Shown one piece after another: positions 11,943 through 16,102 of a stretch of 64,000 bases of DNA. Origin of the DNA: Acidimicrobiia bacterium (lineage in GTDB: Bacteria; Actinomycetota; Acidimicrobiia; Spongiisociales; UBA5794); contig JBPCTY010000060.1 in the NCBI GenBank assembly GCA_051011415.1, positions 10,781 to 74,780 on the forward strand. The letters run 5' to 3'. Made by a program: the position numbers and the translations under genes. Below the pieces are notes generated by a model. The model had not been told where the DNA came from and did not search any database. It saw only the letters and a program-made list of their open reading frames with translations. Every line of letters begins with the position of its first letter. Within the stretch, counting starts at the first letter, position 1.

Positions 11943-12140
11943 CTAGGCCTCTGCCTTGACGATGCGGCCACGGAGACGTGGGTACTTCGTTGGGGCGTGT
12001 GCGTAGCACCATTCGCGCCTGTTGTACTGCGAGAGGGTTGTCGTACAGCCCTTCTGCTCGCATTCGCGCTTCTTCGCGTACGTCTTCGGTGCACGGGTGG
12101 CGCCGGTGAATTTCCGGCCTTTGAGAGCTGTGTCCTGCAT
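11943..12140 (-). CDS. Small basic C2-C-H zinc-ribbon-like protein, last gene of the sigH-rsrA operon
   Basis: 65 aa. Cys/His spacing CX4C...X13...CX2H (KRECEQKGC...WCYAH). Lys/Arg-rich. Lies 38 nt downstream of rsrA on the same strand. Confidence 0.4.
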   Translation of the reverse strand: MQDTALKGRKFTGATRAPKTYAKKRECEQKGCTTTLSQYNRREWCYAHAPTKYPRLRGRIVKAEA

Positions 12141-12178: not shown

Positions 12179-12427
12179 TCAGCAGTCAGGGCCCCCGTTT
12201 TTACGTTCTTGTTGTATTAACGCTCGGAGTTGGTCGAAAAGTTCCTCAGGAGGAGCAGATTTTCCAGATTCGGCGATTTTTGTCTTCAGCGAACGCTCGA
12301 ACTCGTATGCATCGACACATCCGCCGCATCTCTTGAGATGCAGCGAAATACGTGCTCGGCGCGTCACAGTGAGCTCCTGATCGATGTACTGATATACGTA
12401 CTCGACTGCGTTTTCGCATCCGCTCAT
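12179..12427 (-). CDS. rsrA: Anti-sigma factor RsrA/RshA (zinc-associated anti-sigma, ZAS)
   Basis: H-x3-C-x2-C motif ([12 protein letters not shown]) plus an N-terminal Cys ([10 protein letters not shown]). A start at MSGCE gives an ATGA overlap with the sigH stop. Confidence 0.8.
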
Positions 12428-13020
12428 GGCGTTGGCTCCACTAGTCCGTGTTCGACTGCCAGGTTCCACAACTTCCTTTGGAGCGCTTTTCTTCCCCGAT
12501 GTAGCCGAGACATGACGGTTCCAATGGGAACATCAAGGATTTCGGCGATCTCTTTGTACGAGAATCCTTCGACATCCGCGTAGATCACCGGCAACCTGAA
12601 GTTCTCCGGCAGGCTTTCGATCGCCTCAACAATGTCCTCATCCACGAACATGTCGAGTGCTGTGCGTTCGGCACTCTCGCTTGCGCCAGATTGCTCGCCG
12701 AGCCTCCTGAACAAGTACATGTCCTGGAGCTCACCGAGCTCGACCTCACTCGGTCTTCGCTGCTTTTTGCGGTACTTGTTGATATAGGTGTTGGTGAGGA
12801 TGCGATACAGCCAAGCCTTGAGGTTCGTCCCGGCTTCGAACGAGTCGTAGGCCCGATAGGCCTTGAGGTAGGTCTCCTGAACGACATCCTCGGCGTCTGC
12901 AGGGTTGCGAGTCATGCGCAACGCAGCCGAGTACAGCTGCGGTGCGAATTCCATCGCATCTGCCTCAAAGGTTGCCTGGTCCGCCATGTCGCTGAGGGTA
13001 ACGACAGCACGGTGGTTCAC
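12424..13020 (-). CDS. sigH: ECF sigma factor SigH/SigR (thiol-oxidative stress)
   Basis: Near-identical to mycobacterial SigH blocks: [74 protein letters not shown]. Confidence 0.9.
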
Positions 13021-13099: not shown

Positions 13100-14029
13100 T
13101 CAGCCCTCGTAATTGCTCACGAAGTTGAACGTACGAATCGTTCCGAAGGCATCCTTTGCCTTGACCTTGAACGTCTGACCCTTTGGCGCCGACGGGAACT
13201 CAACCCGCACCCACCAATTGCCTTCGCCGTCCGCAGTCGTTGAGCCACTCCCGAAGTCGGACGTGATCTTCACGGTGGTTCCCGGCTTTGCGTAGCCGGA
13301 GAACTCGTCATACGGAACCGGTTCTTCGCACGAGCCATACTTCTGATGTGCGGTGAAATCCCAGGCGGCGGCCTTAGTCGTTGTCGTTTCTTTCGGCTCC
13401 GGCTTGTCGTAGTAGACGGTCATACGAACCTCAGCAACGTTGCCTGCAGCGTCCGTCGAGGCAAACACCACGCCGTTCGCCCCGCCCGCAAGAACGAGGT
13501 CGACAGACCATGCTCCGTCTGCGTTGACCTGCGCAGGGAACTTCCCGCTTGCCATGACACTTGCGCCGGCCTCGGTCTCACCCGTAAACGTGACGGTGCT
13601 GGCTTCGAGGTGTTCGCCATTCTGCGGCGAAAGCACAACCAAATGCGGTGGGGTCACGTCAATGGGAGGGGCCTCTTCTGACGGCTCGTCCCCAACGACC
13701 GCTGCTGGCGTCTCTGTCGGGGGCTCAGTCGGTGTGGTTTCAACGACGGTCGTCGTGACCTGATCGTCGGCCGGTGTTGTCGTCGTGACTGCGGTCGTTG
13801 GCGGCTGAGTGGTGTCGGCAGGAACGTCATCCTCTGGCGAAGGGGCAAGCACCAGCACCGCAACGACGGCAATACCTGCAGTCGCACCGGCGACCGCATA
13901 GCGAAGCATCCTCCAAGTTGCGGCCGCGCCAGCGGCTGCACCAACCGTTCCAACAGGGACGGGAAGGTCCGAAACCGACTCATGGACAGCTTCGGCGGCA
14001 GAACGTGCGAGTGTGTCGAGCGAGTTCAT
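13100..14029 (-). CDS. Membrane protein in the anti-sigma position: short cytoplasmic N-terminus, one TM, a Thr/Pro-rich linker, then an extracytoplasmic Ig-like domain plus a Cys-containing C-terminal domain
   Basis: Start [11 protein letters not shown] overlaps the ECF sigma stop (ATGA). TM is [25 protein letters not shown]. The extracellular part is paralogous to CDS 14761..15663 ([15 protein letters not shown]..., TVYYDKP). Confidence 0.6.
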
Positions 14030-14595
14030 CGGTCTTCTCCCAGTACGGCGCCCAAGCGTTCCGCCAGGGTCTGGCGTCCCTTGTGGAGGTGGACTTTCAC
14101 GGTGTTTGGTGAGCATTCGAGGATGTCGGCGATATCGGAGATCGAACGATCCTCCAGGTAGTGGAGGGCAACGGCCTGCGACTGACGCGTTGGCAGCCTC
14201 CGTACTGCATCCCAGAAGACCTCTGCCTCTGCGGGAAGTGATGGCAAGACAGTTGCCTCTCTTCGCATCCCCCCGAGCTTGGCTAGGGCCTTTGTCTCCG
14301 ACACTCGCCGTCGGAAACGCGACACCGACAGGTTCGACACGATCCGGCGAACCCATGCCTCAGGTTTGTCGTAGGCGCTGATTCGATCCCAATTGCGGTG
14401 CGCGGTCAGAAAGGCTTCCTGCGCGAGGTCTTCTGCAGCTGCGCTGCTTCCTGAGAGTGCGTATGCCAGGCCGACCACGGATCGGTACTCCCGTTCGTAG
14501 AAACGTTCGAAAGGTTCCCGAGCGCGAACCGCCGCAGCCGAAGACGCCGAGCCTTCGTCTGTGGCCGTCGATCGGTTGCTAGGTCGAACGGTCAT
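14026..14595 (-). CDS. ECF (extracytoplasmic function) sigma-70 family factor
   Basis: Region 2 (FERFYEREYRSVVGLAYALSG...AEDLAQEAFLTAHRNWDRI) and region 4 HTH (LPTRQSQAVALHYLEDRSISDIADILECSPNTVKVHLHKGRQ). Confidence 0.85.
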   Translation of the reverse strand: MTVRPSNRSTATDEGSASSAAAVRAREPFERFYEREYRSVVGLAYALSGSSAAAEDLAQEAFLTAHRNWDRISAYDKPEAWVRRIVSNLSVSRFRRRVSETKALAKLGGMRREATVLPSLPAEAEVFWDAVRRLPTRQSQAVALHYLEDRSISDIADILECSPNTVKVHLHKGRQTLAERLGAVLGEDR

Positions 14596-14760
14596 CTGTC
14601 ACCTGTTACACGCACGGTGCATCAGTCGGGTTTATCCAGATATCGGCACGGGCTCGAAAGAAAAGAAGGATTTCGATAAACCACCTGGTCGCCTCAAGCG
14701 TGTAACGGTTGGGCAGGGAGTCATGAGGGCATCGCATCAACATGCGAGAGGACAAGAACT
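14596..14760. promoter_or_regulatory. Divergent intergenic region with the 9-nt inverted repeat GTTACACGC ... GCGTGTAAC (~85 nt apart)
   Basis: GTTACACGC lies near 14604 and its exact reverse complement GCGTGTAAC near 14697. It is flanked by the ECF sigma gene (minus) and its paralog-encoding gene (plus). An ECF-like GTAAC -35 candidate is present. Confidence 0.3.
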
Positions 14761-15663
14761 ATGAGGGGCAAGCCCTATCTCGTCGCAGTAGCGGCCTTTG
14801 TGATCGTGCTGTTCGGCGGCGCTGCTATTGCTGGCGTCGGTTCGTTCCGCGATCAGTCGAACGATTCAGCCGGGGTAAGCCCTTATGCGGCACCAAGCAC
14901 CGATCTGGATGTTGCAGAGTGGACGCCGACGACCAAGGCCGAAGCACCAGTGGAAACGACCACAACCACTCCCCAGAAGGAGAAGGAAGCGGTCGAGACA
15001 AAGACGGAGTCCGGCAAGGACCACGGCACCAAGTCCGATGAGAATTCTGATGAGGACACGTCGGATGAGAAGGAAAAGGACCACAAAGAAGAAGCCAAGG
15101 AGACCAAGGCCGGCGACCTGTTCTCCTTGACGTTCCCCAAGGACGGCTCACACGTCACCAAGAAGGTTGTCGCTTTTGGCGGCGAGGCTGCAGAAGGCGT
15201 CATCGTCCACCGTGGCAAGTATTCGGCACAGCCCAAGAATGGCGAGTGGGTGATGGAGCTGGTGCTCTCCCCAGGCAAGAACACGGTCGGGTTCAAGGCG
15301 ATCAACGAAGCTGGCGGGATTGATGAAGCTGTCGTCACCGTCTACTACGACGCCCCAGCGGGCGACGAAGAGAAGAAGGAAAAGCCGAAGTCCGAGTTCT
15401 ATGCAAAGCAGAAGTATGGAAGTTGCGGTGAAGAAGTCCCGTACGACGTGTTCTGGGGCAAAGCGATGCCAGGAGCCACGATCACCGCATCCTCGCCATA
15501 CGGTGGCAACTCCGTCACGGCCAATGCAGAGGGCCACTGGGAAATGAAGGTCACCTTCGCCTCGGCGCCCGTGGGCAAGACCTTTGAGGTCGGCATCAAG
15601 GCATCGACCGGTGAGAAGAAAGGCTTCAAGTTCACCAACACCGGAGGCGGTGGAGACCACTAG
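14761..15663 (+). CDS. Secreted/membrane-anchored protein paralogous to the extracytoplasmic domains of CDS 13100..14029, with a Lys/Glu/Thr-rich low-complexity linker
   Basis: N-terminal TM/signal MRGKPYLVAVAAFVIVLFGGAAIAG. An Ig-like block ...TVYYDAP and a C-terminal domain FYAKQKYGSCGEEVPYDVFWGKAMPGATI...APVGKTFEV both align with the 13100..14029 product. Confidence 0.65.
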   Translation: MRGKPYLVAVAAFVIVLFGGAAIAGVGSFRDQSNDSAGVSPYAAPSTDLDVAEWTPTTKAEAPVETTTTTPQKEKEAVETKTESGKDHGTKSDENSDEDTSDEKEKDHKEEAKETKAGDLFSLTFPKDGSHVTKKVVAFGGEAAEGVIVHRGKYSAQPKNGEWVMELVLSPGKNTVGFKAINEAGGIDEAVVTVYYDAPAGDEEKKEKPKSEFYAKQKYGSCGEEVPYDVFWGKAMPGATITASSPYGGNSVTANAEGHWEMKVTFASAPVGKTFEVGIKASTGEKKGFKFTNTGGGGDH

Positions 15664-16027: not shown

Positions 16028-16102
16028 TGGAGCCGGAGGCGGGATTTGAACCCGCGGCCTACGCATTACGAGTGCGTTGCTCTACCCCTGAGCTACCCCG
16101 GC
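16028..16102 (-). tRNA. tRNA-Thr (anticodon CGU), CCA encoded
   Basis: Reverse complement GCCGGGGTAGCTCAGGGGTAGAGCAACGCACTCGTAATGCGTAGGCCGCGGGTTCAAATCCCGCCTCCGGCTCCA folds as a cloverleaf. It has a 7-bp acceptor stem, D-arm GCTC/GAGC, anticodon loop CTCGTAA, T-arm GCGGG-TTCAAAT-CCCGC, and a 3' CCA. Confidence 0.85.

Follow-up and report, generated by a model that had tools for sequence, protein, structure and literature searches.

A predicted autoregulated ECF sigma factor, a candidate anti-sigma factor and secreted paralogs of its ectodomain in an uncultured Acidimicrobiia bacterium

Autoregulation is common among sigma factors of the extracytoplasmic function (ECF) group, and the prediction of their targets is by convention founded on it (PMC7826278). 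The usual ECF promoter has an AAC-containing -35 element and a spacer of 16-17 bp (PMC6767563). A putative anti-sigma factor has been assigned to 114 of 157 ECF groups; it is mostly encoded immediately downstream of the sigma gene (position +1), has one membrane helix, and mostly lacks a Pfam match to any characterised anti-sigma factor (PMC7826278). Here, a locus of this kind is described in a 64-kb stretch of DNA, referred to below as the window, from an uncultured Acidimicrobiia bacterium. It comprises an ECF sigma gene, the gene for a single-pass membrane protein in the +1 position (protein A), and a divergent gene for a secreted-type protein (protein B). The locus most likely encodes an autoregulated ECF sigma and a single-pass anti-sigma factor, with a regulon apparently dedicated to secreted immunoglobulin-like (Ig-like) paralogs of the anti-sigma's own ectodomain; this reading is held with somewhat better than even confidence. 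The overall design is that of a standard ECF sigma/anti-sigma pair, and its distinctive features are the very short cytoplasmic segment of A, a sharp promoter motif, and the apparently paralog-only regulon. The literature yielded no report of such a system in Acidimicrobiia.

The best-documented precedent for this logic is the SigI6/RsgI6 pair of Clostridium thermocellum. The GH10 sensor module of RsgI6 is 57% identical to Xyn10D and binds the same polysaccharide, and SigI6, which is autoregulated and co-transcribed with its anti-sigma factor, activates the xyn10D promoter (PMC4711584). The likeness lies in a membrane anti-sigma factor whose sensor is a paralog of a secreted protein belonging to the same regulon. 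On this model, A would carry the binding module of B in tethered form and detect a ligand or surface bound by B. The resemblance is in logic only, since SigI is not an ECF sigma and neither it nor the N-terminal family of RsgI is matched here: no SigI- or RsgI-named family occurs among the 16 Pfam families (the full set) or the best 25 of 93 NCBIfam families for the sigma, nor among any of the Pfam and NCBIfam matches returned for A. The present locus also differs in having a non-enzymatic Ig-like pair, an actinobacterial host, and a regulon apparently limited to the paralog family.

In Streptomyces, SigmaBldN/RsbN controls the chaplins and rodlins, and the class III cytoplasmic domain of RsbN has 117 residues (PMC6101532). 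The likeness consists of an actinobacterial ECF sigma, a single-pass anti-sigma factor unlike others, and a regulon of small secreted surface-protein families (PMC6101532). In contrast to the 117 residues of RsbN, the cytoplasmic part of A has only about 43, and no paralogy of the RsbN ectodomain with chaplins or rodlins is reported. A profile of the A N-terminus, searched against the PDB, gave no match to RsbN.

In the list of open reading frames (ORFs), the ECF sigma gene occupies positions 14026-14595 on the minus strand (189 amino acids, aa), followed by gene A at 13100-14029 on the same strand (309 aa), while gene B lies at 14761-15663 on the plus strand (300 aa). The start of A overlaps the stop codon of the sigma gene by 4 nt (ATGA), and a gap of 165 bp separates the sigma gene from the divergent gene B. 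Proteins A and B are identical to ACR2N2_04140 and ACR2N2_04150, respectively, of a metagenome-assembled genome (MAG) at NCBI. An earlier note on this DNA had described the triad as an ECF sigma, A in the anti-sigma position, and a divergent paralog B; the ORFs, BLASTP, and domain assignments all agree with that description.

The intergenic region between the sigma gene and B contains two mirrored copies of a bipartite ECF-type motif, TAAACC-N16-CG(T/A)GT(A/G)AC, which together form nested inverted repeats. The copy facing the sigma-A operon, TAAACC-N16-CGTGTAAC (14605-14634, minus strand), ends about 10 nt before the sigma ATG and keeps this position in all orthologous loci. The copy facing B has the same form, TAAACC-N16-CGTGTAAC (14677-14706, plus strand), 55 nt before the B ATG. 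Aligned intergenic regions give the full consensus (G/A)(G/A)TAAACC(T)-N14-(G/A)CG(T/A)GT(A/G)AC. The motif is matched twice in the window, against 0.04 matches expected. An AAC-containing -35 element and a CGT-like -10 element before the sigma's own gene are the predicted signature of autoregulation, and, given the habit of ECF sigmas to transcribe their own genes, the motif is probably read by this sigma. In metagenome orthologues, the sigma-side motif lies 3-11 nt before the start codon. A distance of about 10 nt suggests that the sigma mRNA is almost leaderless.

The distribution of the motif points to a narrow set of targets. Across 785 kb of family loci, the core TAAACC-N16-CG(T/A)GT occurs at 71 sites, with 19 before sigma genes, 50 before B-type genes (unlinked copies included), and two at contig ends that truncate the expected gene; none of the 71 lies elsewhere. 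Positions outside the search pattern are conserved as well (a purine at -1 in 100%, A at +28 in 93%, and C at +29 in 88%). An unbiased scan of all metagenome contigs with the strict pattern GTAAACCT-N14-GCGAGTRAC gave 97 matches. Among the 80 that were inspected, about 24 are located before sigma orthologues and 13 before B-type genes. The remainder are mostly on low-GC contigs, or have no credible ORF behind them, or are followed by a gene without recurrence in an Acidimicrobiia-like context (GC of at least 0.58). No other recurrent target was found among these 80 of 97 matches; the few downstream sequences that do recur are low-GC contigs or junk ORFs. Transcription of B from an ECF-type promoter, which the earlier note had put forward for checking, is thus borne out in silico: one and the same bipartite motif lies ahead of both the sigma operon and B, here as in relatives.

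Further elements occur around these promoters. Between the two -35 elements (14635-14676) lies a GCCGATATC element with a GATATC palindrome, which is kept in the clade of the window (L001, L003, L005, L008, and L011). In more distant clades, GCCGATA is found instead inside the spacer on the sigma side, directly before CGAGT. The GCCGATATC/GCCGATA element might serve as a site for a regulator or extend the promoter. Other upstream elements occur in B-like subfamilies that lack the motif, as seen upstream of the B-like genes of L022, L034, L039, L041, and L049, and in L065, L069, and L071. One motif-less group shares CATAGGTCG...GGGATAATG upstream, with a sigma-70-like -10 element, and proteins consisting of the terminal domain only share a GTGTCATAGATC-like element.

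The second line of evidence is the paralogy of A and B. BLASTP aligns the two proteins at 41% identity over 171 aa (E=5e-37), spanning both the Ig-like block and the Cys-containing C-terminal domain, so that the homology of both extracytoplasmic domains, claimed in the earlier note, stands. In A, the first Ig-like domain, of the Glucodextran_B type, covers residues 126-208 (13406-13654, minus strand), and the terminal Ig-like domain, here called the tip domain, covers residues 223-305 (13115-13363, minus strand), with the codon of Cys234 at 13328-13330. In B, a putative signal peptide (residues 1-24, with A-I-A before the predicted cleavage point) and a linker (about residues 25-121) are followed by an Ig-like domain (residues 122-199) and a terminal domain (residues 211-294) with Cys222 (codon 15424-15426). 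The B linker, of 94 aa, is rich in Thr, Glu, Asp, and Lys.

The Ig-like domain passes the Pfam model PF09136 (Glucodextran_B; gathering cutoff 27 bits). A full-length profile matched 21,324 proteins in a representative library, with giant adhesins of 20-58 repeats at the top of the list. A function for the terminal domain could not be read from its fold, which gave only generic Ig-like adhesin and S-layer matches. The earlier note had held that its reading would be refuted if the shared domains were ubiquitous among unrelated cell-wall proteins. At the level of the fold this is partly the case, given the adhesins, but as a family A and B resemble each other far more than they resemble the adhesin repeats.

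At well-conserved positions of the ectodomain, A and B have the same residue at 45 and consistently different residues at 3. Each protein carries exactly one Cys, in the loop YGSCxExxPYD of the terminal domain. This Cys is present in 24 of 25 A-type and 69 of 76 B-type terminal domains, compared with 5 of 60 among the inner repeats found in longer paralogs. Being solitary, conserved, and extracytoplasmic, the residue hints at a disulfide between molecules, at chemistry on a ligand, or at redox sensing. Tip-domain identity averages 0.52 among A-type proteins and 0.45 between A and B, and the A-type domains do not form a clade in a neighbour-joining tree. Recent gene conversion between A and B within one genome was considered and rejected, since the sole pair with 88% identity involves a contig-end fragment of undefined type and is therefore no evidence for it.

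The N-terminus of B consists of MRGKP, a 16-residue hydrophobic run, and A-I-A; in detail, MRGK is followed by PYLVAVAAFVIVLFGG, then AAIA, then G. About 90 homologues of B keep an M[KR]GKP-hydrophobic-AxA N-terminus and one Cys. The segment looks like a cleaved Sec signal peptide, the alternative being an uncleaved signal anchor. For a signal peptide, the region (14761-14841) is unusually conserved, as M[KR]GKP[FL]LVAVAAFVIVLxGGAAxAG. The membrane helix of A (13844-13915) has the small-residue motif AGAxAG. If B is uncleaved, the N-terminal segments of A and B could pack together in the membrane.

The arrangement is conserved in related genomes. A scan of a genome collection gave 79 loci, nearly all from MAGs of Acidimicrobiia or unclassified Actinomycetota, and their ORFs were scored with hidden Markov models for the A N-terminus, the Ig domain, the terminal domain, and both sigmas of the window. 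A sigma orthologue is followed by an A-type gene at 26 loci; over the whole analysis, sigma/A loci number roughly 50. The 4-nt overlap of sigma stop and A start is kept in essentially all of the 26 pairs, apparent values of -7 being due to a model offset of one residue, and it persists with sigma orthologues that share as little as about 50% identity. The search for the same divergent triad in relatives, suggested in the earlier note, was positive: a divergent B-type gene is present in about 20 of the 23 sigma/A loci with enough upstream sequence, and the full triad also occurs in the distant locus L082. B is not adjacent in L012, L016, and L064; in the MAG of L012, a B-type gene lies on a different contig (L046). 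B-type genes also stand alone at many other loci, where they combine one Ig domain with one to four domains of the terminal type.

Two observations concern more distant loci. Beside the triad in L082 (190-3777), a 158-aa and a 450-aa gene overlap by 4 nt, next to a divergent 502-aa gene, with no Pfam match on record; this second gene set may be another unit of regulator, membrane protein, and target. L066, L079, L080, and L081 contain more distant ECF sigmas, whose genes likewise precede those of long membrane proteins with one to five terminal-type domains. These sigmas score 65-88 bits against the sigma of the window, with 212 bits for L081. These pairs, which include an Ilumatobacter MAG and a Nitriliruptorales MAG, suggest that the pairing of ECF sigmas with such ectodomains extends past the core family.

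The sigma itself consists of the sigma2 and sigma4 domains only and is an ECF (group 4) sigma by domain composition; its 189 aa fall within the range of about 170-200 aa for that group. Pfam places Sigma70_r2 at residues 32-97 (E=2.5e-15) and Sigma70_r4_2 at residues 127-177 (E=3.3e-16), and the same Pfam scan gave no match to region 3 or region 1.1. The protein passes TIGR02937 (sigma70-ECF) with 75.6 bits against a cutoff of 42.9. Its best NCBIfam match is TIGR02983 (SigE-fam_strep; E=1.7e-39), at 135.3 bits narrowly below the cutoff of 141.55. The likeness to SigE-type ECFs extends to the promoter, which has an AAC-containing -35 element and a spacer of 16-17 bp, as for sigmaE of S. coelicolor (PMC6767563), but the -10 element CG(T/A)GT(A/G)AC is distinctive. 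The SigE-type clade of ECF38, ECF39, ECF51, and ECF222 is said to share one type of anti-sigma cytoplasmic region (PMC7826278). Unlike SigE of ECF39, the sigma of the window has no two-component system near it. In sigma2, the sigma is detectably related to the BldN structure (6dxo_A, E=2.7e-8). The first codons of the sigma gene (MTVRP) are conserved at the DNA level within the clade of the window.

Whether A acts as an anti-sigma factor was judged from its architecture. An AlphaFold2 model was built from an alignment of 107 sequences, and about 85 full-length homologues of A were listed. Residues 3-20 form an N-terminal helix with the motif LDxxARxAAxAxxxSV (13970-14023, minus strand), modelled with a predicted local distance difference test (pLDDT) score of about 70, and this is the proposed sigma-binding segment. 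Within it, L4, D5, A8, R9, and V19 are each at least 90% conserved. The mean frequency of the major residue is 0.70 in this helix, about as in the folded domains (0.69), compared with 0.47 in the spacer and 0.42 in the extracellular linker. The transmembrane segment follows at residues 44-62 (13844-13900, minus strand), with WRxxRY in front of it and acidic residues behind; the helix predicted by AlphaFold2 spans residues 32-60. With Arg40 and Arg43 before the hydrophobic core and acidic residues behind it, the positive-inside rule predicts that the short N-terminus is cytoplasmic and that the Ig domains lie outside (N-in, C-out). A disordered extracytoplasmic linker spans residues 63-125 (13655-13843, minus strand; disordered from residue 61 in the model), with 25% Thr and 21% Pro. 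It is variable in length and sequence between orthologues, and its pLDDT is mostly 43-58, rising to about 70 near the Ig domain, with no secondary structure predicted. The two beta-sandwiches that follow (residues 128-208 and 225-305) are both modelled with a pLDDT above 95.

No Pfam or NCBIfam model of an anti-sigma family matches A. A neighbouring RsrA-like protein does match zf-HC2, which indicates that such models do recognise anti-sigma domains in this genome. With about 43 aa and no Cys, the cytoplasmic part of A does not fit class I (zf-HC2, RsrA, RseA, and RskA type), whose N-terminal domains are helical, of about 80-90 aa, and often marked by HxxxCxxC. Class II domains (CnrY, NepR) are small two-helix clamps (PMC6101532) and are the closest class in size. 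A differs from them in having one confident helix (3-20) rather than two, and no solved chain in the PDB was similar to it at E up to 10. When the N-terminal profile was searched against 5.8 billion proteins, it returned three uninformative short matches, the candidates being swamped by Ala-rich words. The earlier note had called the cytoplasmic part short and the mechanism possibly atypical. The first point holds, as does the lack of a fit to class I, but a Pfam-less membrane anti-sigma at +1 is the norm among ECF groups (PMC7826278). Taken together, the +1 position, the conserved 4-nt overlap, the conserved N-terminal helix, and the predicted single-pass N-in topology make a circumstantial but consistent case for A as a candidate anti-sigma factor.

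If so, the circuit might work as follows. The observed gene arrangement would allow the sigma and A to be made in fixed proportion through translational coupling. A would tether the sigma at the membrane through its cytoplasmic N-terminus of about 40 aa, mainly through helix 3-20. The Ig-like domains, carried on the long Thr/Pro linker seen in the protein, would be placed at or beyond the cell wall. A cue acting on the A ectodomain, most likely the ligand or surface that B also binds, by the RsgI analogy, would lead to the loss of A, probably by regulated proteolysis; this is the weakest step. The free sigma would then transcribe its own operon and the B-type genes from the promoters at which the motif is found.

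Several points weigh against this scheme. Binding of the sigma by A is deduced from position, overlap, helix conservation, and topology, and the cytoplasmic part of A, with a single helix of moderate confidence in about 43 aa, does not reach the length of class I and class III anti-sigma domains (PMC6101532). The N-terminal profile found nothing in the PDB, even at E up to 10, and nothing in Pfam. A single argument, that of autoregulation, leads from the motif to this sigma. The ECF-type motif is missing from some B-like subfamilies, where other upstream elements occur, which suggests that not every family member is under the control of this sigma. Conversely, further regulon members may exist, and the statement that little else is targeted, drawn from the family loci and the metagenome contigs, is provisional. 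Lastly, clean A and B clades do not emerge from the tip domains, so that the duplication history is not settled by the tip tree.

Other explanations differ from the scheme at distinct points. With respect to the cue, the A ectodomain might bind secreted B itself, Ig-to-Ig or tip-to-tip and possibly through a disulfide between the lone cysteines, in which case the sigma would report how much B has been exported or assembled on the surface. Such homotypic feedback is considered unlikely, even though B is an apparent sigma target, A and B are adjacent in most genomes, and the two share both the 45 identical ectodomain positions (against 3 that consistently differ) and the single conserved Cys confined to the terminal domain. 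Shared conserved surfaces would be equally expected if both proteins bound one common external ligand, so the identical positions and the shared Cys fit both models. Moreover, B is unlinked or has two to four extra domains in several genomes, whereas A stays at two. A self-referential gauge of a surface coat, in which the A ectodomain pairs with B through the tip domain and the lone Cys so that sigma activity measures B outside the cell, is rather improbable. No precedent for the mechanism was found in the literature, and we know of no ECF system for which homotypic feedback control of a secreted protein has been described. As a further possibility, the disordered linker of A might probe the cell wall. 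In Bacillus subtilis RsgI, a long extracytoplasmic disordered region has been proposed to probe gaps in the peptidoglycan meshwork (PMC9732909), and A has a disordered Thr/Pro linker of 63 aa. B. subtilis RsgI works with another sigma family, A ends in two folded Ig-like domains, and a role in cell-wall homeostasis here is an analogy only.

The role of A could also be different. It may be a membrane-anchored isoform that shares the sigma operon, with the sigma controlled in another way, for example by a factor binding between the two promoters. The very short cytoplasmic part, which is unlike any known anti-sigma domain, fits this alternative, as do the GCCGATATC element with its palindrome in the clade of the window and the fact that A, like B, would itself be made from a sigma-dependent promoter. 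A mere anchor, however, would not need an N-terminal helix that is conserved like the folded domains. Also against this alternative, the 4-nt overlap suited to translational coupling is kept in essentially all pairs, even where the sigma orthologues are only about 50% identical. Non-syntenic loci have no other candidate regulator in common, and the sole nearby zf-HC2 protein pairs with the separate SigH-like sigma; this explanation is judged distinctly unlikely. It is very improbable that the motif is read by a different sigma, such as the SigH-like neighbour, with the ECF sigma and B as co-regulated targets. A SigH/RsrA-like pair does lie immediately downstream in the window and in close relatives, but the motif and the triad persist in L019, L021, L051, and L082, where no SigH-like gene is found within the fetched flanks of about 6 kb. 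The SigH/SigR consensus is GGAAT-N18-GTT, which is unlike the TAAACC motif. The motif always precedes the ECF sigma's own gene, the classic pattern of autoregulation (PMC7826278). The autoregulated sigma with A as its anti-sigma factor remains the preferred reading.

Nothing in the surroundings of the triad points to a mobile element. The SigH-like/RsrA-like pair (12179-13020) lies just downstream of A and is separate from the ECF sigma/A pair. The SigH-like protein is canonical, exceeding the cutoff of TIGR02947 with 257 bits, and is followed by the RsrA-like zf-HC2 anti-sigma. A 65-aa Cys-rich ORF after the RsrA-like gene (11943-12140) has no Pfam match, and at the equivalent place in L001 (7117-7314) there is an ORF of equal length (65 aa). 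No convincing sigma-70-type promoter or terminator was found between A and the SigH-like gene. On the other side lies tRNA-Thr(CGT) (16028-16102, minus strand), the only known RNA element recovered in the region. The neighbourhood of SigH, RsrA, Zincin_2 (PF10103 metalloprotease), and tilS is kept in close relatives. Gene B had been described in the earlier note as compositionally distinct, which does not hold for its DNA: its GC is native (0.586, compared with 0.601 for the window; 0.72 at third codon positions), and B is unusual in amino-acid content only. A mobile island, considered on the strength of the tRNA neighbour and the odd composition, was rejected, since the tRNA-Thr gene is syntenic in L001, L003, and L006, the GC is native, and the neighbourhood is conserved.

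For the Acidimicrobiia, a widespread group represented here by MAGs only, the locus provides a sequence-defined, predicted ECF circuit with a sigma, a candidate anti-sigma, a promoter motif, and a target family. The sigma and its promoter form a possible orthogonal pair for synthetic biology. Should the helix of A indeed bind the sigma, the three known structural classes of anti-sigma domain would be joined by a very small module. The apparently narrow regulon makes the locus a test case for the recruitment of anti-sigma sensor domains from the proteins they regulate, and recognition of B itself by A would, if true, be a more novel outcome than the sensing of a common ligand.

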